A stretch of 64,000 bases of DNA, from NCBI GenBank assembly GCA_046482545.1, contig JAWOEX010000045.1, positions 1 through 64,000 of the forward strand, written 5' to 3'. Positions within the stretch are counted from its first letter, which is position 1; every line of letters starts with the position of its first letter. Of the stretch, positions 1,488 to 32,927 are shown piece after piece. Position numbers and translations under genes: made by a program. Below the pieces are notes generated by a model that was not told the origin of the DNA, searched no databases, and saw only the letters and a program-made list of their open reading frames with translations. This DNA comes from Candidatus Thorarchaeota archaeon (GTDB lineage: Archaea; Asgardarchaeota; Thorarchaeia; Thorarchaeales; Thorarchaeaceae).

Positions 1488-1627
1488 ACGCTCCCGCTTT
1501 CAGAGCGGGAACACTCGAGGTACAGACGGGCTGGGTTAGAAGAACAGGGAGTTTGCCCTCCTGACACTGTTGAGCACCTTCTATATTTTGCATATGTTTT
1601 ACAAAACTGAGTTGAGAGACCGTCTTT
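1488..1627 (+). repeat. Repeat R1: 16S 3' trailer, the master copy of a dispersed direct repeat
   Basis: Hairpin TCCCGCT-ttcag-AGCGGGA, then GTACAGAC...GGGTTAGA...AACAGGGAGTTTGCCCTCCTGACACTGTTGAGCACC...TTTTGCATATGTTTTACAAAA...; recurs at 13666, 15559, 16451, 21413 and 32723. Confidence 0.95.
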
Positions 1628-2725
1628 CTACTGACTATCTTCGATTTGCCTCAGCAACTCTTTTGCTGCTTCGAGTTCTGCACGAATACTATCACTGTCC
1701 CATTTCTCTAGGTATCCTTTGTAGATACCGATTGCTTCTTTCACGCGCTTCTTCGCTGGAGAGGATTTGCCGTTTTTGCATAATGCATCAGCGTATTCCA
1801 CCAGTGTTTCGGCTAGGTTTCTTGCTTCGACAGGATCTGACGCCGCCCGTTTTCGATGATACTCCACTTTGCGCTTCAACAGGTCAGCTCCACCTTCCTC
1901 CCCCAGTTCTTTGAAGATGATTTTTGGAATCAGTTCCTCGATTTTTCTCATCACATAGTCGTGGTTGACAAGCTTCTTTTTCCACTCGTCCTCGTCACAG
2001 TTGAAATAGGACTTGACGGGTTTCTTCACCCTTTCTTTTGCCACCTCAACTGAAGAATCGACATCTTCTGGTCCAATCATCTCTGTGAAAGTGAAGAGTA
2101 TAATCCTGTTTTCCCAATCTCCTGTAATGCTTGACTCAAAAGAGATTTCCAGCGCACCTTCCGACCGATGGAGTTCCCCGTGCAATGTTTCGCTATCTAA
2201 TTGCCAGAACGATCCCACCGGAACCCGTGCCAGTCCAAGAAGATTCGCCATCCTCCAGTCCTCCCTGAAAACGAACCCTTCTCGTGTGCTCGGGTCTGGC
2301 TTGAAACTAAGCTCGATGTTGTACAACTGTTGCTCAGAAATCAACCTTTTCGACTCAAGCATACTCAGGATATCCCCCGTATCTACAGGTTCACTGAACA
2401 TGACGCGCAATCGCTCATCTATGCAGGAATCAGGAACATTCACCTTCCAGCACATTCCGTGTTGATTAATTTCTCCAAGAACTGGACAGTATTCTTCCGC
2501 GTGGGTTACGGTCAATTTCACGGGCTGTTCGTTGGCCTTGATCAGTTCCGCACAGGTGAGAGGGAGCGGCGCATCTATTTCGATGTACGGTTCTTTGCGG
2601 AAAACATACGGCTTGAGAAGCGGCAGCTGTTCGAATTCTATGTCTTGGTAAGGGTCCCAAGTCATGTACTGGTTCGGATTGACCGAGCTCTGCAGAGGAA
2701 CCCCATCCACCACTGGCCGACGCAA
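1628..2725 (-). CDS. Hypothetical protein (365 aa) with a helical, TPR-like C-terminus; its 3' tail recurs across the array
   Basis: Long ORF convergent on the 16S; C-terminus ARNLAETLVEYADAL...AKKRVKEAIGIY is TPR-like; no recognisable catalytic motif. Confidence 0.8.
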   Translation of the reverse strand: MRRPVVDGVPLQSSVNPNQYMTWDPYQDIEFEQLPLLKPYVFRKEPYIEIDAPLPLTCAELIKANEQPVKLTVTHAEEYCPVLGEINQHGMCWKVNVPDSCIDERLRVMFSEPVDTGDILSMLESKRLISEQQLYNIELSFKPDPSTREGFVFREDWRMANLLGLARVPVGSFWQLDSETLHGELHRSEGALEISFESSITGDWENRIILFTFTEMIGPEDVDSSVEVAKERVKKPVKSYFNCDEDEWKKKLVNHDYVMRKIEELIPKIIFKELGEEGGADLLKRKVEYHRKRAASDPVEARNLAETLVEYADALCKNGKSSPAKKRVKEAIGIYKGYLEKWDSDSIRAELEAAKELLRQIEDSQ

Positions 2726-2758
2726 AAGTGATAGGACTTCCGAGGTGCGGTGAAGGTG

Positions 2759-3511
2759 TCATGTATCAACTGTTTCGCCCTCGTGTTCGAACTCAACGAG
2801 ATAATCCATATTATCTATGGAAAGGGTACATTGTACTGGGATGACCTCTTCAAGGTTTTCTGCAATCTCTTCTAGACTGCCCTTAACCCGTGCTTTCAAT
2901 CCTGGCGGTATGGCCGCTCCTCTTGGCTGCTTGATGCCGGACTTCTTCGTGTAGTCGATTCTCATCCCCCGTATCTCTGAGATGGCATCTCGCTTTCTTG
3001 GAATGATGCTCACTTCGCCTGATAGCTCCCATCCGCTATCCATCAACACCCACAGATACTCCACTCCACTAAGAGTCGCGACCATGATATTGTATACAGA
3101 ATCGGTGCTCATCGCTTTCTGAAGACTGGTGGCCATCACATCGTGTGCATTCGTGGCCCAGCTGAATGCTCCTCTGACATCCACCGGGATCTTGTTTTCC
3201 CAATAGCCATTCACAAGCTTGGTCTTATCATACTGGTCCTGTAGAAACACCCAGCACCCCTGTTCATCACAGTCCAGTAGGAGACCGTGTCGAACTTGGA
3301 TCTGTACAGGTACAGGACTCACGACAAGCTCCTTTGCCCGCTTGTTCAGGTTAGACCAGACACTTCTCATACCGAACTTGGGAATCAGTCGTTCGCGCGT
3401 TTCCTTGTCCCTGAGCTCGAATCCAAGATGGTGTAATTGCCAAGGGCGGAGAACATCCCAGAGGGTCTCTATATCAGCATCATCTAATTCCGGGTGAACA
3501 ATCTGACGCAT
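2759..3511 (-). CDS. Hypothetical protein (250 aa), probably co-transcribed with the 365-aa gene
   Basis: 250-aa ORF, same strand, 33 bp upstream of the 365-aa ORF. Confidence 0.75.
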   Translation of the reverse strand: MRQIVHPELDDADIETLWDVLRPWQLHHLGFELRDKETRERLIPKFGMRSVWSNLNKRAKELVVSPVPVQIQVRHGLLLDCDEQGCWVFLQDQYDKTKLVNGYWENKIPVDVRGAFSWATNAHDVMATSLQKAMSTDSVYNIMVATLSGVEYLWVLMDSGWELSGEVSIIPRKRDAISEIRGMRIDYTKKSGIKQPRGAAIPPGLKARVKGSLEEIAENLEEVIPVQCTLSIDNMDYLVEFEHEGETVDT

Positions 3512-3544
3512 CTAGACGTTTGGATTGATGAATTCAAACAATAG

Positions 3545-4269
3545 ATTTCGCTTGCGGAGAGTATCTGGAAATCAGATATACTAGGACACGAGAGAATTAC
3601 ATTCCTGCTCCTTGATAATTCTATAGAGTTTATGTCAAAATGCTATCTCAAAGTAATTCGTAATCTAGTTGGAACTAAAAAAGGCACAAAATAACTTCGA
3701 ATGACTGGGAAGATATCTCTAGGTATTTCGGGTATTTGATGGACATAATGAAGAAGCACTCTCCAATACCCCCAAAGACGATTGAATCCATTAAAGCCTA
3801 CCATCAGGTCAGGAATGATTTGTATCATACCTCAATTCCCATGGCTGTCACGAAATCACAATTCCGGGATGAACTCAAAAATGCAATCGAGGTCTTTGAA
3901 ATCTTATTCAATGCAAAATGCGAATCAAGTATCATTGATGTGCCCGCAGTTCTACATAAGAGACCATCACTACAAGATGCTATTTCTGTGGTAACAGGAG
4001 ATCAATATGTGCGAGTCGATATTCCCGATAATTGGTCACTTAGCCAATGCATTAGAGTAATTATCTATGGATACACGTCATCACTTGGTTTGCTTCCGAC
4101 ATATCAGCAGATTGAACAAGCACTCGCAATTTCAAATAGGCCTACCCCAAAGGACAAAATCCGCCAAGGGAATCATAATCTGAAATATCGTGGACATATC
4201 AAGGAGCCAACTGAAGGCAAGTACTCACTCACATCAGAAGGAAAATCTGCTGCCGAAGAACGTAGATAA
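3545..4269 (+). pseudogene. HEPN-like (RxxxxH) plus C-terminal winged-helix protein; frameshifted and lacking a start
   Basis: An upstream frame reads ERITFLLLDNSIEFMSKCYLK and shifts near 3680-3695 into the 177-aa ORF containing RNDLYH; the C-terminus KYRGHIKEPTEGKYSLTSEG is wHTH-like. Confidence 0.6.
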
Positions 4270-4294
4270 TGATTGAGAGGATAGAGAATTAGAC

Positions 4295-4771
4295 TCAGTC
4301 TTCCCCTTCAATAGTATCTTCTTCTCGCTCATCTGTCAGAAGAATATTCTGGAGGCGCTCCAATCCTGGTCCAGCTAACCGATGCCTAGATTTCTCAATT
4401 TCTTCAAACAAATCCCTATAATTTTCGTTTCCATAGTGAGCCGTAATGGTACTCACCGTTACCCCTAGAAGCTCGGCAATTTCCTGATTTCTTATACCCT
4501 TTCTTCCAGCTAGATGCATAGCTATGATAATTTGGTCAAGACGACTCTCGATTTCTGGACTGAATCTCGCGGAGCCATTGGGCAATATAGATACAAGATG
4601 ATCCAGGTTCTTACTAATCGGCTGATGCCATACGCTACTTGATTTTTTCAATACTTGTTCAATCGCTTCAAGTCTCTCATCGATTAGATTCTCTACATTT
4701 GATATTTCTTCATCTGAGAGCTCTATCGTGGCATCATAATGAACTCGATTTATGTGTATTTCAATATTCAT
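4295..4771 (-). CDS. Hypothetical protein with C-terminal winged helix-turn-helix
   Basis: GIRNQEIAELLGVTVSTIT HTH plus wing HRLAGPGLERL; likely start MNIEIH at 4771 within the 204-aa ORF. Confidence 0.65.
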   Translation of the reverse strand: MNIEIHINRVHYDATIELSDEEISNVENLIDERLEAIEQVLKKSSSVWHQPISKNLDHLVSILPNGSARFSPEIESRLDQIIIAMHLAGRKGIRNQEIAELLGVTVSTITAHYGNENYRDLFEEIEKSRHRLAGPGLERLQNILLTDEREEDTIEGED

Positions 4772-4960
4772 TGCTTTTCTACTCCCGTTCCCTAAGATAC
4801 GCTTTGTTAACTCAATATATCTATTGTTGAAAAAGCGACTCTGTGGAAAAAGTAGGCGGAATTGTTGTGAGAAGATCAAATGAGCTGTCAATTCGCTATT
4901 CAAACGCACGGATCCTGATAATCAGGAGCAATAATATGAATCACTCCGATATGGTGGTAT

Positions 4961-5317
4961 GACTTTTTACACAGGGCCTGTTGGAGAGTAGAGTAGCTGG
5001 GAGCTCTGGTGAGCTTGAGCTTATCGAGCAGGATGGGATTGAAGTTGACGAACGCGATGAACTCGCGATAGCTGAGCCCGGAGTCGAACTTCAAGCCTAG
5101 GAGGACAAACAGGGTGGGCAGAGGAAACTCAACAGGCCTGCCAAAGCTGGATTTTTTCTGTGGGATTGTATTGCTAAGCTTGATAAGGGAATCAAGCAAG
5201 AACTGGAAGTGGCGAGACTTGGCTGTATCATATGATGTGTAGTACGTCATGACTCGTGTGACCAGTCAGTCTGGCCACAACCCTTTGTATTACCTCATTG
5301 ACTTTTCACACAGGGCC
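4961..5317 (-). mobile_element. Truncated IS element (IS4/IS5-like transposase N-terminus) bounded by two same-orientation 18-bp IS-end-like sequences
   Basis: ORF 4900..5250 has GRPVEFP...LGLK...LSYREF...APSYSTL, typical of the transposase N-terminal domain, with no DDE core. GACTTTTTACACAGGGCC (4961) and GACTTTTCACACAGGGCC (5300) match at 17/18. Confidence 0.75.
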
Positions 5318-5374
5318 CAATGGATTGAATGATTTTAATACAAATCAGCAAGTTACATAGTATTTCTTAGATTA

Positions 5375-5402
5375 AAAAAAGAAACTACCCTCGAAGGGTA
5401 GC
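5375..5402 (-). terminator. Hairpin plus poly-T terminator of the 159-aa gene
   Basis: CTACCCT-cga-AGGGTAG, followed on the minus strand by TTTCTTTTTTT. Confidence 0.55.
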
Positions 5403-5475
5403 CAAATATTCAAACTGAAAGATGTCTATGAAGGCGTCGATATTTTCCTAAAGATATGTATAACGTAAGATTCCA

Positions 5476-5955
5476 TCAATATATCAACAATATGGGGACT
5501 GAGCCAAATTCCCATGTATGTTGTCCCTCGAACCATAGTCTGCTCTCATCTTCGAATTTAATCTGAAGATATGATGAGGTGGCGTCATCTATCTTATAGG
5601 TCTCGGCTCCAAATGTAAGACGAAGAGTGACAATATTTTTCCAAGAACCGCTACCGCCCCATCTGTATGAGACTACAAGTCCTTCATAATTATGCCCAGT
5701 AGGACTGACACTTTCGTAGTCTATTAGAACCCAATATGCATCACCATTAGTTGGAACGTTATTTATGTCCCATGTCATAACCAGCTTGTGAGTCCAGTCG
5801 CTCGCTTGTTCTGTGGACTTATTTGTGCTGCTATTCCAAGATCCATACGTACAATATGGAGTTTCATCATAGCGTTCAGTTACTGCTAGTACAGGTTTGG
5901 GCATTAGAAGTACAACAGACACGATTATGCCTACTATAATTACTCGTTTATCCAT
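5476..5955 (-). CDS. Secreted hypothetical protein (159 aa), beta-rich
   Basis: Signal peptide MDKRVIIVGIIVSVVLLMPKPVLA; SD GGAGGTGA upstream; W/Y/T/S-rich mature part. Confidence 0.75.
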   Translation of the reverse strand: MDKRVIIVGIIVSVVLLMPKPVLAVTERYDETPYCTYGSWNSSTNKSTEQASDWTHKLVMTWDINNVPTNGDAYWVLIDYESVSPTGHNYEGLVVSYRWGGSGSWKNIVTLRLTFGAETYKIDDATSSYLQIKFEDESRLWFEGQHTWEFGSVPILLIY

Positions 5956-6310
5956 TTTCTCACCTCCCTTATTACTATCTTGAGGAAAAACACCCTCCCA
6001 AGTGACATTATATTAGATAACATTCTATAAAAATATATCTCCCAACTTTCAAAGCCTTCTCCAATACCGTTCTGGGAATTGGGGTCTAAGATATCAGATG
6101 AATAGGCAAAGCTTTGTGATACTATTCGGGGTAATTTGTCTCTTCATAAAATTAGAGAAGATTAATTCATCATCGATATGAACAAAAGAACTAAATTGAG
6201 TCTATGATCCTCTGTAGCCATTCCTACAGTACGAAGAATGACGGAAATGTCTATAATACAAGGCGTCAAAAATGATGAACACCATTTAGCTAACTGGAGG
6301 GAGGTTAAGC

Positions 6311-9085
6311 TTGCTAGCTCCTGCTGTATATGAAGTATTTCATACTTGGAAACGCAAGGGGTTAACCTTGCTATGCCTCATGCTTGCAGCGGGTCTTGCT
6401 ATAGGACTCACCGCCTATGTGGATTCTTACTCCGTCCACGAATGGTCAAGAGTTGTCGATATTGGCCCGATTTCGATGCGTGTTGATGGCCCAGATATTG
6501 TAGATAGGATGGATGAAATTCGAGGGGTTGATGGTGTAGAAGAGGTTGGCTCCGTCAGATTCGTATCGCGTCAGTTGAGTGGAGCTATGGATACGTATTC
6601 GCGAGAATTTTTCGCTATTCCAGACTCGCATTTTCTTACAGTGTTTCCAACCGTGTTCCAGATGATTGAGGGACGCTATCCTGAAAACGGTGATGAGATT
6701 GTCATTCACTGGCAGAAAGCTCAGGAGGCAGGTATAGCCATGGGCGACCAAGTGAATTATACATCCGGAAATGGTGAGGAAATCCTAGGTACTCTAAGAG
6801 TTACTGGTATATTCGAACTTGGGGAGGGAGTACTTGTGACTAGATTAGATCGGGATTTCGTAGCTTTATGGAGCGCTATACAGTCCTCAATTGGAATCGT
6901 TCATCCTGTATCAATACCGGAGGATGCTGGATTTACGTCCATATATGTGGATATTGATAGATCCCGGCTATCCCCCTCAAATCCCGCTGGAGCATTGCAA
7001 TTTGTCCATAGTATCGAGGTGCAAGTCCGACTGCTAGATCCGCATCTAAGCCCCTACGAGACCTACCGGGATTCAATCTACGACGTGCGCAACCGCCTGA
7101 CACGAGCCATTTCCGATTATATGGATTACCTTCTGGAAATGAGAATCTTGCAGCTTCGACGGGCAGGTGGTCTAATCCTCCTGATTGTCGTTTTGGACTA
7201 TCTTGCTATTCGTTACAACTTCCACGAACGAGACACGGAATCGCTCCTGCTACAGGCGAGAGGTGCCTCGAAGCTTGAAACAGAACAGGCCATCGTACGG
7301 GAGCTGGCGATTTTATCAGCAGCAGGAACATTTTTAGGCCTCTGCTTTGGAATTCTGTTGAGCCGGCTTGCTCTTTCATCCACTGGCTATTTGCACTTCG
7401 ATTTCCATTTGTTCTTCACCGAACCGTTTCTGATCTCGTTAGAATCCCTGTTCCTATCCCTGATTGTTGGCCTGCTTGTACCTTTCTTCACGATGGGTGG
7501 GTATTTTGCAGTATATAGACTCAAGGAACCAGTCCAAGAAGCGGGGGGGAGACTAGAGAAGATGATTGAGGGGTTTAAGACAATACAGTGGGACGCTATT
7601 ATCCTCATCATATCAAGTCTGGTCTTGGCTTCGATGTATTTGTTTGGAACCACGAGCATTGAGAACCAGAACCTGAGGATTGCACTATCAGCAATGCCGT
7701 TTGTACTGTTCGTCTCATTGTCGAGTTTAGTCATCAAAGGGCTTCGCTGGGGGGCCTTGAGGATTTCAGACGCCTTTGAAGGTATAGTTGGCAAAATCCC
7801 GGCATCGATTGGAATTCGGAGGATCGGGAAGAAAGCATCTTCAGCCGCCCCTATAGTAATCGTCCTCGCTCTATCTATGAGCTTGGCTTGGAACATGGCT
7901 ATCGTTGATGCATCCCTTCCTGTGACCAAGGAAAACCATGCCAAGTTCGCCTTTGGTGGAGATATCTCTTTTAATCTCAATAATCATCATGCCGGGCTCT
8001 GGGATTCATTCTTTCAGAATGTATCACAACATCCCTCGACTGCCCAGACCAGTCTTGTCTCAACGGTGGATGTTCAGGTTTCAGCTGGTTGGGAGGGGCG
8101 TGTTAGTCTAACTGCAATCGATCCAACAACTTTCGTTCATGTGGGCTATGACTACAGGGGTACGAGATTGAATGAATCTGTTATCTTTTCGGGGATGATG
8201 GAAGATCTGCAGGCCGCTACATTTTCAGTAATCGTGACCGAGTACCTTGCTCAAAAATATGACCTCGAACTAGGAGATATAATCCAGACATCTTACAACA
8301 ACCAAAACGATACTCAGGTTTTTTCATTTGTAATTAAAGGAATCCTTGCGGGTCTATCTGACATGACAGACAAACGCACCGACTGGGGTAGATCAGATAT
8401 TGCACAGCGAGTTATGTGGATAAACAGAGAGGTCATTGCTTCTGATATCAATCTCACGGCCGAGGCCTACAATACCCTTTGCGTTGCCACGAAAGCTGGA
8501 ACCAACGAAACGAAGATTGCACGGGAGTTGATTGCGGATGGTGCCTCCAAAGTCTTGCTGAAAGGCGATATAATAGAGGAAGGATGGGTCGCAGTCTCCC
8601 ATGAGGTAGCGGGTTATGTCAACGTAGCCGAATATGTTATGAACCGAGCAACTGATACATTGAAAACACTAGGAACGTTGTTTGTTATAGTCGGGGTCTT
8701 CATTCTGTACGCTATCGAGGACCTGCAATCTTGGAAGCGTGAAGTAGCACTCCTGCGCTCCGTTGGAGGGAATACGTCACATGTGGTAAAAATCCAACTT
8801 GCCGAGCTGGTGGTTTTGGTATCAGTCGCGGTGAGTCTTCTTCTAGTCTATTCTCCTGTATCGATAGCAAATGCCTTGTTGCTACAAGAGAAAACACCTC
8901 TTGCTTTCCCAATCCGGTTCTTCGTTGTATTTCCTTGGTCCGATCTTTTTGCCATCTTTACGTTTTTCTTGGGATGTACCCTAGTCGTTACGATGATTAT
9001 CGCTGCAGTAAACACGAGAGTCAGCCTATCCAGGGCATTGAATGCACACTGGGCCGAAGCAGGACCATACAGAGGTGAACGATGA
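6311..9085 (+). CDS. MacB/FtsX-type ABC permease (two FtsX domains)
   Basis: 924 aa; LLQARGAS and REVALLRSVGG FtsX motifs, large extracytoplasmic loops, multiple TM segments. Confidence 0.85.
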   Translation: MLAPAVYEVFHTWKRKGLTLLCLMLAAGLAIGLTAYVDSYSVHEWSRVVDIGPISMRVDGPDIVDRMDEIRGVDGVEEVGSVRFVSRQLSGAMDTYSREFFAIPDSHFLTVFPTVFQMIEGRYPENGDEIVIHWQKAQEAGIAMGDQVNYTSGNGEEILGTLRVTGIFELGEGVLVTRLDRDFVALWSAIQSSIGIVHPVSIPEDAGFTSIYVDIDRSRLSPSNPAGALQFVHSIEVQVRLLDPHLSPYETYRDSIYDVRNRLTRAISDYMDYLLEMRILQLRRAGGLILLIVVLDYLAIRYNFHERDTESLLLQARGASKLETEQAIVRELAILSAAGTFLGLCFGILLSRLALSSTGYLHFDFHLFFTEPFLISLESLFLSLIVGLLVPFFTMGGYFAVYRLKEPVQEAGGRLEKMIEGFKTIQWDAIILIISSLVLASMYLFGTTSIENQNLRIALSAMPFVLFVSLSSLVIKGLRWGALRISDAFEGIVGKIPASIGIRRIGKKASSAAPIVIVLALSMSLAWNMAIVDASLPVTKENHAKFAFGGDISFNLNNHHAGLWDSFFQNVSQHPSTAQTSLVSTVDVQVSAGWEGRVSLTAIDPTTFVHVGYDYRGTRLNESVIFSGMMEDLQAATFSVIVTEYLAQKYDLELGDIIQTSYNNQNDTQVFSFVIKGILAGLSDMTDKRTDWGRSDIAQRVMWINREVIASDINLTAEAYNTLCVATKAGTNETKIARELIADGASKVLLKGDIIEEGWVAVSHEVAGYVNVAEYVMNRATDTLKTLGTLFVIVGVFILYAIEDLQSWKREVALLRSVGGNTSHVVKIQLAELVVLVSVAVSLLLVYSPVSIANALLLQEKTPLAFPIRFFVVFPWSDLFAIFTFFLGCTLVVTMIIAAVNTRVSLSRALNAHWAEAGPYRGER

Positions 9086-12778: not shown

Positions 12779-12820
12779 CCTATGGAAAGGGGTTACTTGT
12801 AGACCAAATCCTTTTGCTAT

Positions 12821-14565: not shown

Positions 14566-14635
14566 ATCTTACCATGGGGGGCATTGAGGATGGAATACAC
14601 CCTATGTTCGAGCTGTCAAACCCCCTTTTCATTTT

Positions 14636-15965: not shown

Positions 15966-15972
15966 GATTCCC

Positions 15973-19243: not shown

Positions 19244-19329
19244 TATATACCATCACCGCTTTCTTTGCACCTTGGAAATAAAAAGAGGGAATAGCTCCTT
19301 TCCATTGAAAAGAACTATATTCCTTTTAA

Positions 19330-21412: not shown

Positions 21413-21535
21413 ACTTGAGGTACAGACGAGCGGGGTTAGAGGAACAGGGGTTTACCCAACTGACACTGTTGAGCACCCTCTATGTTTTGCACAAGATTAC
21501 AACGCCGAGTTGAAAGATCGTTTGACTACTGACTA
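21413..21535 (+). repeat. Repeat R5: diverged full trailer copy ending at the gene-tail stop codon
   Basis: ACTTGAGGTACAGACGAGCGGGGTTAGAGGAACAGGGG...CTGACACTGTTGAGCACCCTC...TTTTGCACAAGATTACAACG...CTACTGACTA. Confidence 0.93.
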
Positions 21536-22984: not shown

Positions 22985-23047
22985 CAGTTTTTCACCTCTA
23001 TCAAACGGAGGACACTATAATTGCAGTTCGCATCACGCGAGAACAAG

Positions 23048-23701
23048 CTAGGCCCCCTCTTTGCCAATCAATTTCTTTGCAAGAGCTGCAGCAGTAACCG
23101 CATCCCCCGCATATCCGTCAGCTCCTATCTCATCTGCCCATTCTTGAGTGGTGGGCGCTCCCCCAATCATCACCTTGATATCATCCATTCCAGATTCTCT
23201 AAACGCTTTGATGACTTCCCCCTGTTTAGGCATTGATGAAGTGAGTAATGCCGATAATCCAACAATATCTGCATCGTGCTCCTTTGCTTTTTCAATAAAT
23301 GTATCGGCCGGTATATCTTCACCCAGATTGAGGACCTCGAAGCCATTAGCTTCAAGTAACGTTCCCACAATGTCCTTTCCAATGCTGTGGATGTCCCCCT
23401 CTACTGTACCAATAATTACTGTTCCCGCAGTTTCCATTTCTCTTCCTGAGGCCTTCACTTCCGGGAGTAGGACTGACATACCAGTTTTCATAGCTTTCCC
23501 TGAGGTTATCAGTTCGACAAGGAATACCTCACCCTTACCAAACTTATCTCCCACTTCTTTTACCCCTTTTGCCAATCCTTCAACAATGGCATCAAGGGGA
23601 GGAACACCACTCTTTAGTGCTTTCCGAGCCGCAGCTTCTGCTTTGTCTGAACTACCTTCAACAACTGATTTTCTTAGTTCTTCAATTATTTCTGACGACA
23701 T
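23048..23701 (-). CDS. Cognate corrinoid (B12-binding) protein, MttC/MtbC-like
   Basis: GTVEGDIHSIGKDIV (DxHxxG), SALLTSS, VMIGGAP. Confidence 0.93.
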   Translation of the reverse strand: MSSEIIEELRKSVVEGSSDKAEAAARKALKSGVPPLDAIVEGLAKGVKEVGDKFGKGEVFLVELITSGKAMKTGMSVLLPEVKASGREMETAGTVIIGTVEGDIHSIGKDIVGTLLEANGFEVLNLGEDIPADTFIEKAKEHDADIVGLSALLTSSMPKQGEVIKAFRESGMDDIKVMIGGAPTTQEWADEIGADGYAGDAVTAAALAKKLIGKEGA

Positions 23702-24207
23702 TTTTGAGCACTTCTCGTTTCGCTTTCTGTTTCAGTCTGTACAACGCCTTATTCCGTACTGTTTTCGAAAACCGGAAAGATTATTCAACCACTCAAATCC
23801 TCAAGAGCCTGAAGATAAGAACCTAGACGATGAGATTGTATGTACACAGTACTGAATCAGCCCAATTGCGATTTCTCTCATCATTCCACATTCCTATTTC
23901 GGAGTTCGACCAATTACTCTTTAGAAGTGGATGGCAATGCTTTCTTATATTTTTAATCCAAAGCTAAATTCCTTTCGGACACTCACTCTTAAGCTTCTTA
24001 TGTTTCTATTATGGCTACGAATTGAAGTGCAGCTAGTATTTGCCACGTCAATACTGATGTTTCGAGTGGGACAATCCGAACTTAGATTATGCGTAGAAAT
24101 CGGTAGTTGCATGCTTGTTTTTATACCCTTTCTACTCCCGGTTGGAAGTTGAAGAAAAAGAAAGGTGGGGGGCCAAGCCCCCCTGAGAGAACGCGATCTC
24201 TGAGCTC

Positions 24208-25821
24208 TTACTCTGGCGGTAATGAGCTATATACTGTCTCGACATCAATATCTTCTTTCTCAAGTTTACGACTGAATGCCACAAACCAGAGAGCAGAGAA
24301 GCCGTACTGGACACACATCGAAATAATCGATAGGAAGGCCGCCCCTTGGAAGAATCCAATCATAACAAAGAGCGATACCGGGAGTAAAATGATTCCCAAT
24401 AGCGAGACAACCGAATATCCAGCTATTTCCGGTTGCTCTCGTATGCTTCCTTTATACAGTGGTTTCTTAAGGTATGGAAGCCCTAAGGCTGCAATTGATT
24501 GAAAGATCATTTCAATGCCGTAGAGTCCAGTAAGCGATGTGACAACATTGATGAAGTTTCCGTAACCGGCTGCTAACACAAATGCGAAGGGTAATCCGAA
24601 GAAGAAGTAGTAGGCAATTGCGTATTTCGGCGTATGGAATCTAGATAGCTTAGCAAAGAACTCAGGCATCATTCTATCTAGGGACGCTTGGAAGAATCCT
24701 CGCGTAACCCAAGCCATATTCATTGGCGTTGCCGTAAGACCCACCACAACTGGCGACAGGAGAATCCATCCTGATATGATGGGATTGGATGCCAATACGG
24801 CTGTAAAAGTACCTAGTCCTGTCTGGAAATACGCCGGTTGCGTGAGATTCCCTGTTTGTGCGGCAACCGTATATGCGGTCGAAAAGCTCCCAAATGTGGA
24901 TTGGAAGAGCGCCGCAGCGGAGCTTAGCAGAACAGCCAAAATCCCTCCCCCAAGTACCTGTGTGAGTACTAAGTTCTTTGCTGGGTCTGATATTTCACCT
25001 CCATAATGGAGGATTAGGTACGGCCAGACCAATCCGATGGGCCACACAGTTGCCATGAGAGTCATCTGCAGGTTGAAACTGGCAGCAGAGAAACCAGCCG
25101 TAGAAGCCACATTCACAACTTCCTGATACGCTCCACTACCCCAAACTGCGTTCCATTGACCGGGAACAGCAGATGCAGGAGTTAGTAACAGAACAAAAAT
25201 AGCCATTACCCATCCAATTGTTGAGAACACCCCTCCGGCCATCTGGACAATTGGTTCCACTTTAAATAGTGGACCCAGATAGGCTACTAGGGAGAAGAGA
25301 GCCATTAGGAATATTGAAACACCAGCTAGTACCCAAGGGCTCTGATTGGAAAATGTAACACCCAGTGAAGTCAAGGTGGTGTTGTTTGTTACTCTACCCC
25401 AGTTCGCAAATGCTGAACCTAGGAAAACCAAAAAGAGGTAAAACTCACTCATCTTGATGATTGGATTGGCAATGATCCCACGCCAAACAGCAAGGATGCC
25501 AACAATGGGATTGACACCTCTTGCAGAAATCTGGTAAATTCCTGCAGAGCGTGGCATAGCCAATGATAGCAGGGTTATCATGACTGTATAAATGAGCATG
25601 AAACCCATGCCTATACTCCAAGTCATACCCGCGTTGATTCCCGGGTACATATCTTGAAGAGTGCCAACAAAGAGCCATTGGAACGTTCCCAAGCTGGCTC
25701 CTATCAATGCGAAGAGTGCAGTCCATGTACCAAAGTATTTGGTTAATCCTGAGGTTGGTCGCAAGAATAAAATCTTGGAAGAAGACGAGCTTTCCATTTT
25801 AATATCCTCAGTACGGTTCAT
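24208..25821 (-). CDS. APC-family amino acid/amine permease
   Basis: FLRPTSGL, AMPRSAG, GGEI, LDRMMPEFFAK; ~12-14 TM segments. Confidence 0.85.
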   Translation of the reverse strand: MNRTEDIKMESSSSSKILFLRPTSGLTKYFGTWTALFALIGASLGTFQWLFVGTLQDMYPGINAGMTWSIGMGFMLIYTVMITLLSLAMPRSAGIYQISARGVNPIVGILAVWRGIIANPIIKMSEFYLFLVFLGSAFANWGRVTNNTTLTSLGVTFSNQSPWVLAGVSIFLMALFSLVAYLGPLFKVEPIVQMAGGVFSTIGWVMAIFVLLLTPASAVPGQWNAVWGSGAYQEVVNVASTAGFSAASFNLQMTLMATVWPIGLVWPYLILHYGGEISDPAKNLVLTQVLGGGILAVLLSSAAALFQSTFGSFSTAYTVAAQTGNLTQPAYFQTGLGTFTAVLASNPIISGWILLSPVVVGLTATPMNMAWVTRGFFQASLDRMMPEFFAKLSRFHTPKYAIAYYFFFGLPFAFVLAAGYGNFINVVTSLTGLYGIEMIFQSIAALGLPYLKKPLYKGSIREQPEIAGYSVVSLLGIILLPVSLFVMIGFFQGAAFLSIISMCVQYGFSALWFVAFSRKLEKEDIDVETVYSSLPPE

Positions 25822-25930
25822 TATAACGCCTTCGCGTTATTTAAATGCACCGAGTTATCTTAAAGGATATTAAATTTAGATATGCCTTTCCTCGCAATAG
25901 AAGCGCATCTGGAGTAAATTGACGGCTGAA

Positions 25931-26614
25931 TTAAGTCAACTTCACAAGATAGTGCTTTCGCCAAGGTTTCGGTTCTTTAACAACCTCAATATGATTATAG
26001 TCAAGGAGACCAACCCCGACTAGATGATCTTCAGGATTTTCGTCTTTGTGACTAATATATTGACGCAATTGTTCAATTAACAATTGCACAGCTTTTCTTA
26101 CTTCCTTCTCACGGGCCTTATTGACTTCCGGATTCTCCTCGAAGAAGTTGTTTATGCGTTTTGAAATCATCCCGCCTATTATGTAGCGCGCTCCGACCCC
26201 AATAAGAATCGCGGCGAAAGTTGTAATCATGACATAGGGTGCTATAGCACCAACGAATGGAATATCAGGAAAGAATAGGCCCACAAACAACATTATGAAG
26301 AGTATAGGAACAGGTATCTGCCATAATGCTTCTGTATAGGTTTGGATAGTAGCCAGCCTAACCAAACCGGGAATCGATGAGGTCACTCTGGCCATCTTCA
26401 CCATTTTTCTTCGAAGCGGTTTCCAGATTTCTGCAAACTTCCTTCCCAGTGTCCGATTCTCGACCATCTTATCGATATGAGTTAGTTCGTAGAATGCATG
26501 CTGTCTATACCCATCAATGGCATAGATGGCTTTCCGGATATCATCTGGATCAAGTCTATCCATTCGGCGGTCTATTGCAGCACTATGCTTTTTTTCCCTG
26601 CTACGCTTTCTCAT
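25931..26614 (-). CDS. Membrane protein with two TM helices
   Basis: 227-aa ORF with two hydrophobic segments, downstream of the phosphoesterase. Confidence 0.7.
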   Translation of the reverse strand: MRKRSREKKHSAAIDRRMDRLDPDDIRKAIYAIDGYRQHAFYELTHIDKMVENRTLGRKFAEIWKPLRRKMVKMARVTSSIPGLVRLATIQTYTEALWQIPVPILFIMLFVGLFFPDIPFVGAIAPYVMITTFAAILIGVGARYIIGGMISKRINNFFEENPEVNKAREKEVRKAVQLLIEQLRQYISHKDENPEDHLVGVGLLDYNHIEVVKEPKPWRKHYLVKLT

Positions 26615-26639
26615 TGATTCTTCCCACAGATAAACTACG

Positions 26640-27593
26640 TTAGGCGGATACGTTTAGAGTTCTAACTTTCTCATCAGGTTTTTCTGGTAGATCTACAACG
26701 AAAGCGTTGAGCATACCTTGTATATAGATCGAACCCGGATTGAGACAAAGCGTTTTCCCGATGTATTCGGTTCCAGCCGACTCGTGGATGTGCCCATGAA
26801 GCCCAAGTAGAGGTTGATATTCCTCAATGGTTTCGCGGACACTTTTGCTTCCGACGCTTTCCATAGGTGGTCGACCAAAACGAACTTTGACTTGGAGATT
26901 CTCATCCAGTTTGGGCGCTCGGTCAACCCTAGTTCCATATGGTGGGGCATGAAAATTACAGATTAGGTTCTCGTGATTACTAACTCGGTTGAACTCCTTT
27001 TCAAGTCTATCCCTTAGCTCATCTTCTGGGCATTCTCGAGGCGTATTTTTCCAAGGCGTAGTGTTAACCCATGCACAGCTAATCATGGGATGATTCTCGT
27101 CTATTTCAATTGCCTTGTGAATCGGATAGATTGCTTTATCGCTTGCCTTTATCAATTCATCAATTGAAGCGTCATCATCATTGCCTGGAGAGACTATTGT
27201 TTTCACATCATCCGGTACTTCTTCTTCTATTACCTCTAACCACCATTTCATCCTTTCTAGCATGAGCTCTTCAAACAGCTTCTCAACCCGTTCTTCATCA
27301 GCCTGTAATTCACTCAGCTCATCTGGAGTGGTCAAAAACCAATAGAATCCTCTCTTCTCGTATTTCTTCTTCGCTTTGTTCAACGCGTCTTCTGACTTGT
27401 ATTCTTCTTTATCACCATAGGGTGCTGACCACCATTTGCCTTCTTCCTCTTCAACAATGGGCACGACCGCTTTCCCAGTAAGGTCGCCACACATCATTAC
27501 TACATCGCAATTGTACTTCTTATGCACTCTTGCCATTTTTCGGAGAACAGGCACACTACCATGAGCATCACAGGAGAAGAAAACGCGAGTCAA
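26640..27593 (-). CDS. Calcineurin-like metallophosphoesterase (Icc-related)
   Basis: DAHGS, GDLTGK, GNDD, HAPPY, GHIHES, NPGS; likely TTG start at 27593. Confidence 0.88.
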   Translation of the reverse strand: MTRVFFSCDAHGSVPVLRKMARVHKKYNCDVVMMCGDLTGKAVVPIVEEEEGKWWSAPYGDKEEYKSEDALNKAKKKYEKRGFYWFLTTPDELSELQADEERVEKLFEELMLERMKWWLEVIEEEVPDDVKTIVSPGNDDDASIDELIKASDKAIYPIHKAIEIDENHPMISCAWVNTTPWKNTPRECPEDELRDRLEKEFNRVSNHENLICNFHAPPYGTRVDRAPKLDENLQVKVRFGRPPMESVGSKSVRETIEEYQPLLGLHGHIHESAGTEYIGKTLCLNPGSIYIQGMLNAFVVDLPEKPDEKVRTLNVSA

Positions 27594-27682
27594 GGGTAAA
27601 CCTCGCGCGGATTGTTCGCAACAGATATTTAAGGATTTACTTATTGTCGAAAAAACAGTAACCCAATACTGAAGGATTTGCG

Positions 27683-28453
27683 ATGACCACCCGAACAAAA
27701 CAAGACGATTTCATCGATGAGGGAATGAGATTACTTGAAGAGGCTGAGAAACAAGATATCATTCTGAGAGTAATGGGTGCTATTGCAATCAGGCATCATT
27801 GCCCTGATTTTCGCGAGCTGCACCAAAAAATGGGTAGAGAGATTTCAGACATAGACTATGTTGGCTATGAGAAACAGAGCGATGAAATCGAGGATTTTTT
27901 CAAGGAACAGGGCTATAAAAGCCGAGTACTATCTTATAGCTATCGGCAGGTTGGCCGGATGATTTTCTTCGACGAAGCCACGAAGCGCCATGTGGATGTG
28001 TTTCTAGATAAGCTAGCTATGTGTCACACCATAGATTTCTCTGATCGGCTTGAAATTGATTATCCCACTATTCCTCTCGCAGAAATACTCTTGCAGAAAA
28101 CCCAGATTATTATGCTCAGCGATAAGGATGTCATAGACACAATGGTAATGTTCAGGGAGCACGATGTTGGTGCGTCTGATGAAGATATGATAAATATCGA
28201 TTATATCGCTGGCATTCTGGCCCGAGATTGGGGCTTCTATCATACGGTAACGACAAACCTCCAAAAGGTTAAGGACTTGCTACCTGACTATTATCTATTG
28301 ACCGATGAAGATAGGCAAATCATTGCAGACAGAATTGATAGGACTATTACAAGATTCGAAGAAGAGCCGAAGCGCCTAAAGTGGAAGATTCGTTCCAAGA
28401 TTGGTACTCGAATGAAATGGTACAAGGACGTGTACTCTGCACCAAAGGAATGA
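27683..28453 (+). CDS. Nucleotidyltransferase-fold protein
   Basis: LRVMGAIAI...REISDIDY...VDVFLD...LLQKTQI...KDVID. Confidence 0.7.
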   Translation: MTTRTKQDDFIDEGMRLLEEAEKQDIILRVMGAIAIRHHCPDFRELHQKMGREISDIDYVGYEKQSDEIEDFFKEQGYKSRVLSYSYRQVGRMIFFDEATKRHVDVFLDKLAMCHTIDFSDRLEIDYPTIPLAEILLQKTQIIMLSDKDVIDTMVMFREHDVGASDEDMINIDYIAGILARDWGFYHTVTTNLQKVKDLLPDYYLLTDEDRQIIADRIDRTITRFEEEPKRLKWKIRSKIGTRMKWYKDVYSAPKE

Positions 28454-28505
28454 CGGACATCCTAACTACGGCGAAGCTCTCTCACACAATCACTATTCTC
28501 TGACA

Positions 28506-29591
28506 CTAGTCCGGAAAGGTGATTTGTACCTTGATTGACTTTTCCTTTTCTTTATCGAGTGCAGCTGCGTAAGCATCATTAATTTCTTCTAAGGTATATC
28601 TGTGGGTTACTAGCTTCTCCGCATCTATCCTACCTTTGTAAAGCAAATCCATGCCCACTTCGAATTCTCTCCTATGGCTCCAGTATCCATATCCCCAAGC
28701 AGTCGTTACGTTAAGCTCTTTTGTCAGAAGCCCGAAAAGATCCGTTTCAATGGGTTCTACAAATATACCGGTTATGACTAGTGTGCCTTGAGGCCTTAGC
28801 ATGTTTATAGCATCATTAATGACTGTGGTCTTTCCTCCGACAGCTTCAATTACCTTATCTACCCCCTTGCCTTCTGTCATGTCAAGTATCTTCTCAACCG
28901 GATCTTCTTTTCTTGCATTGATTGCCGTCGTTGCCCCCACTTGCTCAGCGGCATCTACCTGAAAATCATGAGTTCCCACAGCATATACGTCTCTTGCGCC
29001 AGCGGCTTTAGCGGCTTGTACTGCAAATAATCCAATACTCCCAGCCCCTATAATCACCACATCGTCTTCGTTAGAAACACCAGCTTTCCTGATTGCGTGC
29101 TCTGCGACGGCAATACAATCACCGGTCGCAGCCTCCTGCAAAGAGATGTGTTCTGGCACCTTGAAACATTTCTCTGCCGGTACGGCACAGTATTCTGCAA
29201 AACCGCCCAAGTAGTAGAATCCTATCAATTTGTACTCCTTGCATAAATTGTAACTACCCGTTTGGCACCATTTACACACTCCGCACCCAACGATGGGTTC
29301 AACTACTATTCTGTCTCCTTTCTCAAATCCCTGTACATCTTCCCCAGTTGCCTCGATTGTCCCGGCAAATTCGTGACCTGGAACGTACTTTCCCTCACCA
29401 AGCACAGAATGAATTCCGATGGATGTTTTCTCCTTATACAGGTGTAAGTCACTGCCACAAATGCCTGCAGCTTTCACCTTTACGAGAACCCAGCCGGGTT
29501 CCAGAGCGGGAACTTTAAGCGTCTCTATTCTCATGTCTCTGGGTCCATGAAAAACCGCCGCCTTCATTTTTTCTGGATACATTGGAGTCAA
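28506..29591 (-). CDS. Zn-dependent alcohol/polyol dehydrogenase (MDR family)
   Basis: GICGSD, GHEF, CGVCKWC...C, GAGSIG. Confidence 0.92.
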   Translation of the reverse strand: MTPMYPEKMKAAVFHGPRDMRIETLKVPALEPGWVLVKVKAAGICGSDLHLYKEKTSIGIHSVLGEGKYVPGHEFAGTIEATGEDVQGFEKGDRIVVEPIVGCGVCKWCQTGSYNLCKEYKLIGFYYLGGFAEYCAVPAEKCFKVPEHISLQEAATGDCIAVAEHAIRKAGVSNEDDVVIIGAGSIGLFAVQAAKAAGARDVYAVGTHDFQVDAAEQVGATTAINARKEDPVEKILDMTEGKGVDKVIEAVGGKTTVINDAINMLRPQGTLVITGIFVEPIETDLFGLLTKELNVTTAWGYGYWSHRREFEVGMDLLYKGRIDAEKLVTHRYTLEEINDAYAAALDKEKEKSIKVQITFPD

Positions 29592-29908
29592 CTCAGTTCT
29601 ATTGATGTTTCTGCTCTACATAAGCATTCTTCTGAATCTTTTGAAATACTGTTCGAATCTATCAACTTGCTGCCTTGCTTGGCGGTCGTTTGGAGCATTC
29701 CTCACATAAGCCACTTGCTGGTTAGTTGTTGGTGGTTGTTCTAAGTGTCTCAGCTGGTATCATCCACAAGTTCTGGCTATTTCGAAGTCTTAAAATGCTA
29801 GAATGAGTAGCTTACGAACGTAACTGTGTTAGACTGGGCCTTAGCGCCCATCAAGGCTTGAATTGGAGGCCTTGTTTCAATTCCGCAGTGTCAGGTGCTG
29901 ACTAGACC

Positions 29909-30928
29909 ATGAATTCATCCCCTATTGATCTCATTAAAACAACTATTTCACATGAAGAGCCGGAACGCGTTCCTGTACTCCCTCTTGTCGGTTTACTTTC
30001 TGCCAAGCTTTCAAATGAATCAACATTGGAGCTTCTTAGAAATCCCGATGTACAAGCTAAATCTCTTCTTCATTCAATGGAGAAGTTTGGCTATGATGGG
30101 GTTTTTACCGTAATGGACTTGACTGTGGAGTCTGAAGCACTTGGTGCGGAAATCGAGTACGGTTCGGACAGATTTCCTTATGTATCTCGACACCCTCTGA
30201 ATGATTTGAGTGAAGTTTCGGATTTGAATATTTATTCCTCGGAAGAGAGTAGATTATCAGTTTTCGTAGGGGTGACGGAACGCCTCAGACAGTCTATTGG
30301 CAACACACATTTAGTAAGCAGTTATGTAGTGGGTCCTTTCACATTGGCAGGACAATTGTTCGGTGTTAGCACGATATTGGAGCGAACAGTCGATGATTCA
30401 GACTCCGTGAAGAGATGTATCCACGACTGTACTCGTCTTCTTCAACCGTATATCACCGACTTAATTGATGCAGGCGCGCATAATATCGTGATTTTGGAAC
30501 CAACTGCCAGTAATAACGTGATATCTCCCCAGTATTTCGAAGAATACTGTTCACCATATGTTCGGGACATGATTGAGTCAATACAATCAGCAGGTGCCAT
30601 CGCTACGCTTCATATTTGTGGAGATACAAATAGAATAATTGGGAATATGTGTGATACCGGAGCTAACGCACTTAGCATTGATTCTGCTGTGAATCTTGTC
30701 CAGGCAAAAAGAGTGGCTCGAAATAAGTCTACTCTGATTGGTAATGTGGACACAACGCTTTTGCTGAGAGGCACACATCAAGAGGTATTGAATGCGGCCA
30801 ACGAATGTTTAGAAGCAGCTTCGAAGGGTGGAGGTTTTATTCTTAGCAGTGGTTGTGATTTCCCTATTGAGACGCCACCAGCGAATCTTGAGGCCCTAGT
30901 ACAGGCGGCAACCACTCATGTTGCGTAA
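29909..30928 (+). CDS. MtaA/CmuA-family methylcobamide:thiol methyltransferase (MT2, UroD fold)
   Basis: DLTVESEALG, VGPFTLA, LHICG (Zn ligands), LSSGC. Confidence 0.85.
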   Translation: MNSSPIDLIKTTISHEEPERVPVLPLVGLLSAKLSNESTLELLRNPDVQAKSLLHSMEKFGYDGVFTVMDLTVESEALGAEIEYGSDRFPYVSRHPLNDLSEVSDLNIYSSEESRLSVFVGVTERLRQSIGNTHLVSSYVVGPFTLAGQLFGVSTILERTVDDSDSVKRCIHDCTRLLQPYITDLIDAGAHNIVILEPTASNNVISPQYFEEYCSPYVRDMIESIQSAGAIATLHICGDTNRIIGNMCDTGANALSIDSAVNLVQAKRVARNKSTLIGNVDTTLLLRGTHQEVLNAANECLEAASKGGGFILSSGCDFPIETPPANLEALVQAATTHVA

Positions 30929-30958
30929 GACCTTTCATGTTTGTGAAACTCTTCATAG

Positions 30959-32596
30959 GTGGAGTACAGATTGGAAAAGAAACTGCTGATTTTTGAGCCA
31001 TCTGGTGCAAGAATCCTAGTTGATGCGGAAGCGACCTATCTAAAAGCTATACGAGAAAGCGGAAGATATGTCCCTGCTGATTGTGGGGGGAAGGGCACAT
31101 GTGGAAAATGCCGCATAGTGGTACAACCTAGTCCATCCCCAACGAACTCCGATTTGGAGCACTTGTCCGAAGAAGAATTAGAGTCTGGAGTACGACTTGC
31201 ATGCCAGCATACCGTTGAGAATAATCGTCGAATCCTAATTCCTTCTGAAGCTGGAGAGGCCAAAATCCTTGTTGACGCTTTAATTTCCCGGCCGCTAGTC
31301 CCTGAGATTGGTGAAGCTGGAGACATCGGTATTGCGATTGATCTTGGTACGACGACAATTGTATGTTACTTCATAGAATTAGGATCTGGGACACAGATTG
31401 ATGTAAGAAGGGAGATTAACCCGCAGATTGCATTTGGCGAAGATGTGATAAACAGACTGACCTATGCAATGAACAACCCTGGCGGACTTCAGGAATTGCA
31501 GGATGTCGTGTGGTCCAAAATCGCCACGTTGGTGGAAAGCTTTCTTGAAGCAAGTGGAACTGAAAACATGAGACTGACAACCGGGGCCATGGTGGGGAAT
31601 ACAGCTATGCATCACCTAGCCTTGGCTCTACCTGTTGAATCACTATCTACAGCCCCGTACAAACCTACTGAAACCAAGTCTCGTATAGTACAAGGGTCAG
31701 ACTTGGGTCTCAGCTGCCTTCCTCAATGCGAATTCTACTTCGCACCTAATATATCGGGTTATGTGGGGGGTGACGCACTGGGTTTCATTCTGTCACAAGC
31801 ACTTCACGAGTATCAGGGAGTTGCGCTGGGGATTGACGTAGGAACAAATGGTGAGATAATTGGTGTTGATAATGGAGAACTTTATTGCTGTTCCGCGGCC
31901 GCGGGTCCTGCCTTTGAGGGTGCTAGAATCGCCTGCGGAATGAGAGCACAAGATGGTGCCATAGAGCATATGATAACAGCAAGTTCGGAGGCAGCACCAG
32001 AACTATCGGTTCTAGGGAATTCCAAGCCTGTTGGCATCTGTGGTTCTGGAGTTCTTGATGCAATAGCTGAGTTAAGAAAAGTCAATCTCATCGATAAATC
32101 GGGGAGACTTCTGGATGGAAAGCGTATACACAAAATCGGACAGCACGAGAAAGCCTACGTGATTGCATCGCAGAATGAGTATGGAATTAAAAAGCCAGTT
32201 TTCATCAGTCAGAAAGATGTGCGAGAAGTACAGCTAGCAAAGGCGGCAATTCGAGCTGGCGCTGAGATCGTTCTCGATAAGCTTGGCTATACCGCTACCA
32301 ATTTGGATGCCGTATTTTTGGCAGGTGCATTTGGGAACTACATGAAACCGGAAAGCGCATTGAGTATAGGGCTATTACCTCCAATAGACTCCGACAAGGT
32401 TGTACCAGTTGGTAACGCCGCAGGTGATGGCGCAAAGAGAATACTTGTGTCACATCATGAAAGAGAGACCATTGAACGGATTTCGGAGTCCGCTAAATAC
32501 ATCGAACTTGCTTCCCAGATAGAATTCAATGATCTCTTCTCTAGAGCAACTCAACTCACACCTGAAGTCCCGACTATAGACGAGCTTACATCTTGA
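30959..32596 (+). CDS. Corrinoid reductive activator (RACo/DUF4445): 2Fe-2S plus ASKHA ATPase
   Basis: CGGKGTCGKC...RLACQ, IDLGTTT, DVGTNGE, AAGPAFEG, QLAKAAI, AGAFG. Confidence 0.92.
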   Translation: MEYRLEKKLLIFEPSGARILVDAEATYLKAIRESGRYVPADCGGKGTCGKCRIVVQPSPSPTNSDLEHLSEEELESGVRLACQHTVENNRRILIPSEAGEAKILVDALISRPLVPEIGEAGDIGIAIDLGTTTIVCYFIELGSGTQIDVRREINPQIAFGEDVINRLTYAMNNPGGLQELQDVVWSKIATLVESFLEASGTENMRLTTGAMVGNTAMHHLALALPVESLSTAPYKPTETKSRIVQGSDLGLSCLPQCEFYFAPNISGYVGGDALGFILSQALHEYQGVALGIDVGTNGEIIGVDNGELYCCSAAAGPAFEGARIACGMRAQDGAIEHMITASSEAAPELSVLGNSKPVGICGSGVLDAIAELRKVNLIDKSGRLLDGKRIHKIGQHEKAYVIASQNEYGIKKPVFISQKDVREVQLAKAAIRAGAEIVLDKLGYTATNLDAVFLAGAFGNYMKPESALSIGLLPPIDSDKVVPVGNAAGDGAKRILVSHHERETIERISESAKYIELASQIEFNDLFSRATQLTPEVPTIDELTS

Positions 32597-32722
32597 TTAT
32601 ATGAATGATAAAATGTATGCAGCAATCATATTTCAGAGGCCTAATCATACTTGAAGAATTCATTCGAAAAGAAATGCAGCAAAGGCCCATAGCTGAGAAG
32701 GCATGGAATAAGTCAATCAGAA

Positions 32723-32927
32723 GTACAGACGAGCGGGGTTAGAGAACAGGGAGTTTACCCCTCCTGACACTGTTGAGCACCCTCTACATTTTGCACAAGA
32801 TTACAACGTTAAGTCGACAGGCCGTCCGGCTACAGACTATCTTCGATTTTTTTAACAATCCGTTTGCTATTTCCAATTCTATTCGCAAGTCCTCAGTATC
32901 CCATTTCTCCAGTTGTTTCTCATAGAC
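32723..32927 (+). repeat. Repeat R6: diverged full trailer copy plus a 32-codon gene tail
   Basis: GTACAGACGAGCGGGGTTAGAGAACAGGGAGTTTACCCCTCCTGACACTGTTGAGCACC...; the minus-strand tail reads VYEKQLEKWDTEDLRIELEIANGLLKKIEDSL*. Confidence 0.94.

Follow-up and report, generated by a model that had tools for sequence, protein, structure and literature searches.

The window analyzed here comprises the first 64,000 nt of contig C2 (JAWOEX010000045.1) of a Candidatus Thorarchaeota genome (GCA_046482545.1), hereafter G000; other G numbers denote relatives, L numbers denote loci from these relatives, and C numbers denote contigs of G000. Between its 16S rRNA gene and the TYW2 gene at 33854, the window holds an array in which partial copies of the 16S trailer, displaced downstream of the native one, alternate with blocks of cargo genes. 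Next to the native trailer lies the remnant of a gene for a large Asgard Cas1-like protein (aCas1), which in relatives is accompanied by tnpB and by guides matching the 16S gene. We consider it likely that the region is the accumulated footprint of such an aCas1-TnpB element targeting the 16S 3' end. The array is laid out as follows.

405..1487, plus strand: 16S rRNA gene (Rfam RF01959), its 5' part missing at a probably chimeric contig start; the gene that anchors the array and is targeted by it
1488..1627, plus strand: native 16S trailer R1, the 3' strand of the pre-16S processing stem with a T-rich end; source of the repeat (leader-trailer pairing in G001; family conservation)
1628..2725, minus strand: 365-aa open reading frame (ORF), the C-terminal piece of a broken aCas1, about residues 1355–1714 (tblastn, tree)
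2759..3511, minus strand: 250-aa ORF, the preceding piece of the broken aCas1, about residues 1093–1340 (tblastn, sister-species comparison)
3736..13558, unstranded: block 1 cargo, two unknown ORFs, an insertion sequence (IS) fragment (4839–5250), a secreted protein and an FtsX ABC system
13666..13839, plus strand: displaced trailer R2 with 44 nt of aCas1 tail, the youngest copy (96 bp the same as in R1)
13913..15193, unstranded: block 2 cargo, VapBC and a DUF6036 nucleotidyltransferase, common to G001 at 92–93% in a different order
15559..15648, plus strand: displaced trailer copy R3
15681..16365, plus strand: block 3 cargo, VapBC
16449..16606, plus strand: R4, a displaced copy to which about 110 nt of aCas1 tail are attached
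16607..19995, minus strand: block 4 cargo, a secreted protein and an ABC-2 transporter, 87% to G001
20171..20473, plus strand: frameshifted aCas1 tail without trailer
20506..21178, minus strand: block 5 cargo, an AbrB-PIN pair; block and junction found earlier in the G001 array
21413..21535, plus strand: displaced trailer copy R5
21557..32596, unstranded: block 6 cargo, MttB, corrinoid protein, permease, dehydrogenase, URO-D family methyltransferase and RACo activator; not found in the arrays of G001 and G002
32720..32926, plus strand: displaced copy R6 with aCas1 tail
33135..33450, minus strand: 5'-truncated non-coding element that retains its right end and the TnpB RNA scaffold, flanked by an 8-bp direct repeat; closes the array

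A BLAST search with positions 1495–1978 retrieved copies on the same strand (E values 1e-61 to 5e-20), with identities of 89% for R2, 83% for R3, 75% for R4, 72% for the tail-only copy at 20171, 82% for R5 and 76% for R6. The recurrence of the trailer noted in a preliminary description of this DNA is thereby borne out, with the qualification that the six copies are partial (90–320 bp) and begin at varied points, 20, 92, 106, 181, 38 and 42 nt past the GCGGAT motif at 1470–1475. Each copy had also been described as joined to a tail of the 365-aa gene, which is often the case, but R5 includes only about 10 nt of it. The cargo blocks listed there were all recovered (FtsX ABC, two VapBC pairs, DUF6036 nucleotidyltransferase, ABC-2, AbrB-PIN and MttB/corrinoid/URO-D/RACo, followed by TYW2); the HEPN remnant placed in block 1 found no support in Pfam. 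The trailer is conserved in family genomes that lack any element or that have no module in the array, and the 16S leader of the sister species G001 pairs with its own trailer over about 60 bp (-86.9 kcal/mol). Because of this conservation and pairing, the repeat can be recognized as the 3' strand of the pre-rRNA processing stem. As an ordinary rRNA trailer with ragged left edges, it is no dedicated recombination site and lends no support to integron-like att sites.

Outside the array, the repeat in G000 is limited to two decayed pieces on contig C9 and therefore is no dispersed miniature inverted-repeat transposable element (MITE). Logan contigs from two samples, which belong to a single study and may be the source of the genome, bridge the left and right junctions of R2 and R3, as well as R4 and the tail, and leave unbridged the 96 bp identical between R1 and R2; RNA contigs among them do not demonstrate transcription. 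Several array junctions are common to the independently assembled genomes of G000 and two sister species of the genus. The order of blocks differs between G000 and G001, which also has a fused copy of the R3/R4 type; it is thus probable that the copies recombine with one another. Serial insertion at the 16S trailer, with older trailers pushed downstream, and a role for homologous recombination, both proposed in the preliminary description, are supported. None of the three observations named there as refuting was made: the repeat is not scattered, the junctions recur in independent assemblies, and in relatives the repeats accompany a different cargo order. A displaced piece of the array at C9:194715–197340 contains an aCas1 tail, VapBC, a tail with trailer and an FtsX remnant; it is fused to the right end of a MITE with TnpB RNA, whose left end was not found nearby.

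The 365- and 250-aa ORFs match one reading frame of 1550–1960 codons found in dozens of family genomes, and tblastn with a 1717-aa aCas1 gave 33% over residues 1093–1714 (E = 8e-96). By sequence, the two ORFs are the last third of a broken aCas1 gene encoding about 1700 aa. The 365-aa piece alone had no match in Pfam, in a PDB sequence search or in a search of 5.8 billion proteins; its relatives were found by the genome searches. In a quick tree, the remnant groups with all 16S-linked aCas1s and not with the intact ones of G000 (SH-aLRT 98). The window locus has lost by deletion the Cas1, nuclease and RecA-fold domains, tnpB and the guides, whereas G001 retains tnpB and a guide. In relatives, aCas1 usually stands head to head with tnpB, as in G001, G004, G005 and many more. 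TnpB loci associated with aCas1 have been described as groups Cas1H-Asgard-1 and -2 (Altae-Tran et al. 2023, PMC10691335, where aCas1 is credited to Makarova et al. 2020), and the module of the relatives, of which the window keeps a remnant, is this pair.

A model of aCas1 residues 1–900 reached a mean predicted local distance difference test score of 86.5. For residues 1–235 of a full-length relative, P0002, the top five structure matches were Cas1 or casposase (Z 11.0–13.2, root-mean-square deviation 3.4–3.9, 173–194 residues aligned), casposase 6opm having Z 11.0; profile searches with this helical domain did not reach Cas1 by sequence. Structure, motif and literature together point to a Cas1 fold in residues 1–235. 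A PD-(D/E)XK nuclease set, recognized by motif, lies near 384–470, and a RecA/KaiC fold without the canonical Walker A lysine at 580–860. Among 46 full-length aCas1s, the predicted catalytic residues of the Cas1 domain (E/N/H/D/D) and the nuclease are nearly invariant, Glu69 being present in 45 and every other such residue in all 46. The C-terminal half, to which the window pieces belong and which was folded whole rather than by domain, gave no clear fold match except for a TPR-like end, and neither half, compared whole, matched TnsB, TnsC or TniQ.

The TnpB of relatives retains the Asp residues of RuvC-I and RuvC-III; the RuvC-II Glu is replaced by Gly, and an alternative Glu is conserved 54–58 residues past that position. 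A RuvC site rearranged in this way is active in TvTnpB, which cuts at 21–22 nt (PMC10530073). The active site is plausible on these grounds, and the compensating Glu speaks against reading TnpB as nuclease-dead. Downstream of tnpB, in relatives and at other G000 loci, there is a GTTCACTCA-type motif; the order is a scaffold ending in a TTCACTC hairpin and then one to five units, each a 7–8 nt repeat followed by a spacer. At 17 loci these spacers begin with 9–27 nt of 16S sequence from four sites (S1–S4), two per strand, each target lying directly 3' of GGAT (S1, S3, S4) or GAAT (S2). These sites and the mini-introns of the window 16S gene are as follows.

799..828, plus strand: 30-nt 16S mini-intron at a site without known guide, about E. 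coli position 908 (alignment to intron-less thorarchaeal 16S)
1258..1274, minus strand: target S1, intact in the window, 5' flank GGAT; guides in G004, G083, G105, G066 and others
1303..1319, plus strand: target S2, intact in the window, 5' flank GAAT; guides in G002, G005, G010, G026 and others
1418..1447, plus strand: 30-nt 16S mini-intron splitting target S3 (1492R region, antisense)
1476..1487, plus strand: target S4 at the 16S 3' end, intact in the window, 5' flank GGAT

The sister species G001 has both an S3 guide and an intron at the position equal to 1418..1447. Across 39 thorarchaeal 16S genes, 46 of the 63 insertions fall in the seeds of S1–S4, nearly all of them 30 nt long, and 13 more are at one unguided site. 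In eight genomes every checkable guide is blocked by an intron or a mismatch, and in two others this is partly so; many guides match over only 12–14 nt. At the unguided site, L245 and L036 carry insertions of 740 and 849 nt where others have 30 nt; these are probably homing-endonuclease introns.

Arrays of this kind occur in relatives and change their repeat with the guide. Trailer or 16S-end copies with cargo are present in at least ten other genomes, and 11 of 43 genomes hold several copies of a 16S 3' motif, compared with 1 of 42 for a mid-16S motif; the pattern used in this phylum-wide search was too specific to Thorarchaeota for gauging other Asgard groups. A 23S control matched five genomes, with the 23S gene at a contig end in G000, and was uninformative. 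The loci with mvhD guides have the module upstream of an intact target and hold two or three mvhD copies, truncated and starting at the guide site, and those with tRNA guides hold tRNA 3' halves. G000 itself has a second guided array, with an intact aCas1-TnpB pair and an mvhD guide at C28:1–7476, continuing at C38:1–2500 with toxin-antitoxin genes set among truncated mvhD copies; comparison of the whole G000 genome with itself revealed no third array of the 16S or mvhD type. The displaced copies are 60–95% alike, and in G001 and G002 they contain an intron that the 16S gene of the same genome lacks, as expected of displaced or foreign alleles.

Several further loci may be mentioned. In G000, C23:117800–124400 carries an intact aCas1-TnpB pair with a tRNA-Gly between RNA scaffold and guides, a layout also found in L148 and L188. 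Mercury resistance cargo (ArsR, a MerA-like protein and MerB) lies between two 16S trailer copies at L029:2858–5654 (G004). In L032, from a genome of another Asgard family (G040), the 16S 3' end and trailer are present in two nearly identical versions 14–16 kb apart; therefore, such arrays may extend beyond Thorarchaeota.

Elements with defined ends provide a second view of the module. The other aCas1-TnpB copies of G000 are plain transposons with short duplications, whose ends are common to about 50 non-coding derivatives; the C28 and C20 elements have matching 8–10 bp flanks and MITE-type ends, and sister elements show imperfect inverted ends and short target duplications. Within elements that have clean ends and 8–10 bp duplications, aCas1 is the only large candidate transposase. 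The 16S-type loci, in turn, are flanked by trailer copies, and element-end motifs precede displaced copies in 3 of 48 cases, against 3.2 expected by chance. Retrotransposition with 5' truncation was rejected, as no reverse transcriptase fold was seen and the sister MITEs have two defined ends. The approximately 50 non-coding elements and fragments (560 bp, with TnpB RNA scaffold and TCNNGA-type duplications) include window positions 33135–33450 and 59440–59515; each could be the source of a different flank-derived guide.

Relative to the S4 motif, none of 46 displaced copies starts upstream of -36, two begin between 0 and +19, and 19 begin between +20 and +50; overall, the left edges range from -30 to +186, with no fixed distance. 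The ISDra2 TnpB cuts at 15–21 bp (PMC8612924), and the +20 to +50 cluster falls just past the known TnpB cut positions (PMC8612924, PMC10530073). Given these edge positions, the diverged alleles with foreign introns and the lack of element ends, we favor a TnpB cut near the 16S end followed by one-sided recombination with related DNA as the process that built the array, a mechanism to which we give about an even chance. TnpB with its guide RNA would cut an unprotected 16S allele about 15–22 bp past the GRAT motif. On the 16S side, homologous recombination with DNA entering from a related cell would mend the break and introduce the 16S end, trailer and following genes of that cell. The far end would be joined to the resected old end without long homology, leaving the old trailer and its follower, often an older aCas1 tail, behind the new cargo. 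An intron in the target or a mutated guide would spare the allele from re-cutting, and later recombination between copies would delete and reorder blocks. aCas1 would be the transposase that first places the module, and it may help to form the far joint. The unrecognized site-specific system suggested in the preliminary description is supported and can now be given an identity, namely the aCas1-TnpB-guide module of relatives aimed at the 16S 3' end.

A number of points weigh against this scheme. Its steps are all inferred from sequence, built on the observed identity of the remnant, the guides and their targets, the intron overlap and the arrays that follow the guide, and DNA uptake by Thorarchaeota is presumed. 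The cluster of left edges could partly reflect a variable hairpin after the 16S end. The guides of G002, G014 and G024 (13–17 nt) match their own intron-less, unprotected site, and self matches of 12 nt occur in G066 and G083; MAG (metagenome-assembled genome) mixing or a dead TnpB could account for this. No junctions can be traced to the S1 or S2 guides, and in the stretches examined the arrays of G011, G027, G028 and G034 show no module. Since introns and guides both favor conserved sites and the genomes are related, the intron and guide counts overstate independence. Finally, the junctions L249 and L193 join the right end of the element directly to a displaced target, which fits transposition better.

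These two joints lead to the main rival, RNA-guided integration, in which TnpB mainly binds or marks the site and aCas1 joins an element end or cargo DNA nearby, in effect a CAST-like (CRISPR-associated transposon) system on a Cas1 fold; the repeats would then be long target duplications, or circles of target 3' part plus element would re-enter by one crossover. It is favored by the near-invariant catalytic residues of aCas1, the only large transposase candidate in clean-ended elements, by the short guides, some matching an intact site of the host, and by a module that sits upstream of intact mvhD much as an integrase lies beside its site. However, apart from the two joints, element ends occur at the chance level, the insertion distance is not fixed, the copies are diverged alleles rather than exact duplications, and the TnpB active site is still plausible. 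We regard this alternative as less likely than the favored route, and only tentatively entertain the picture it implies: a gene-capture system of Thorarchaeota in which a Cas1-fold integrase, TnpB and a guide mini-array bring kilobases of cargo to the 16S 3' end, mvhD or tRNA genes, with the 16S mini-introns as a counter-measure.

Less probable still is a host-only route, corresponding to the RadA option of the preliminary description, in which the conserved 16S gene anchors homology-facilitated illegitimate recombination or the single-crossover entry of circles, aCas1-TnpB is a passenger and the guides are captured flanks. Arrays that persist without a visible module (G027, G028), junctions without element ends, and the changed block order and fused copy of G001, probably products of recombination between copies, would suit it, as would guides that start right after one motif in the manner of flank-derived ones. 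It leaves unexplained, however, the switch of the repeat to mvhD or tRNA along with the guide, the placement of the only two arrays of G000 at 16S and at a guided mvhD, the introns in the seeds, and the retention of up to four guides on both strands. An artefact of mis-joined strain variants, or an ordinary small dispersed element, is highly improbable: the chimeric contig start, a second, 93%-identical 16S piece on C33 and the unbridged 96 bp of R1/R2 would fit an artefact, but independent genomes share junctions, contigs bridge most of them, the copies are too diverged for assembler confusion, the repeat is not dispersed, and the other genomes with arrays repeat the pattern.

Under the favored cut-and-recombination reading, the array resembles TnpB homing in its working and an integron or CAST homing site in its looks; it departs from both integrons and CASTs in defining features. 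Among the closest described systems, the Cas1H-Asgard pair (PMC10691335) shares the Asgard Cas1-like gene beside tnpB, the GTTCACTCA-type motif after tnpB, the repeat-flanked loci and the proposal of a transposon. In that study the possible guide is located upstream of the motif and no target is given, whereas the guides described here lie downstream of it in mini-arrays, have their matches in 16S, mvhD or tRNA, overlap 16S introns and accompany cargo arrays; in the window, only a truncated remnant of the module is left. In TnpB homing of IS200/IS605 elements (Karvelis 2021, PMC8612924), too, an RNA-guided cut is made 3' of a short motif and recombination follows; the guide comes from flanking DNA, and the process has been likened to intron homing. 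Here, however, no Y1 TnpA was seen and aCas1 takes its place, sister elements show target duplications, several guides are dedicated to an essential-gene target 100–400 bp from the element rather than to the donor joint, and the outcome is a growing array.

CASTs with delocalized homing crRNAs (CRISPR RNAs; types I-F and V-K, PMC11656645) similarly combine a short repeat with a short spacer against conserved genes (tRNA) beside the element, but in our case no TnsB, TnsC or TniQ was recognized, the effector is not clearly dead, the insertion distance is not fixed, and no 5-bp duplication is present at the 16S site. Integrons share repeat-delimited cargo rich in toxin-antitoxin pairs, blocks added at the front and an order varying between relatives; the delimiters here are instead rRNA trailer fragments with ragged edges and no fixed crossover of the attC type, the blocks are multi-gene and in both orientations, and Pfam revealed no IntI tyrosine recombinase among 30 array ORFs (integrases acting in trans were not searched genome-wide). 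Casposons have a Cas1-fold transposase and, like the sister elements, imperfect inverted ends and short duplications, but aCas1 is a 1700-aa multidomain protein with a TnpB partner; no polymerase-sized ORF was noticed in the ORF lists of the listed loci, which were not searched specifically for family B DNA polymerases. What was known is the aCas1-TnpB protein pair, with a putative function; literature searches yielded no paper on 16S-targeted guides, the intron overlap or such arrays, and overlap with Makarova et al. 2020 is possible.

The aCas1-TnpB pair thus gains concrete guides, a GRAT target motif, targets, ends and a predicted product, and its function therefore becomes assayable. The system offers a possible reason why 30-nt introns stand at the 16S 3' end, also within the 1492R primer site, where they affect amplicon surveys. 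It likewise suggests how these archaea might gather genes for toxin-antitoxin pairs, transport and methyl transfer. Should aCas1 integrate under RNA guidance, two ingredients of CRISPR origins, TnpB targeting and Cas1 chemistry, would be linked, and a guided aCas1 would be a programmable integrase unrelated to Tn7 and a potential new insertion tool.

Some minor features of the window complete the picture. Positions 1–404 are GC-rich non-16S sequence, which we take to resemble a bacterial monomeric isocitrate dehydrogenase; the 16S gene is 96% to the sister species from 406 on, so that this stretch is probably a chimeric contig start, and it inflated the Rfam 16S call to position 258. The second 16S fragment, at C33:33215–33800, shares the first intron site and likely stems from a sister population or contamination. 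The IS fragment at 4839–5250 belongs to an unrelated IS whose 140-bp end is multi-copy in the genome. An Rfam PYLIS_3 match at 21946–22045 lies inside mttB, whose frame has no in-frame stop, and probably reflects coding similarity. Finally, a 23S gene is located at C2:83500–83900, about 80 kb downstream of the 16S gene on the same strand; the rRNA genes are unlinked.

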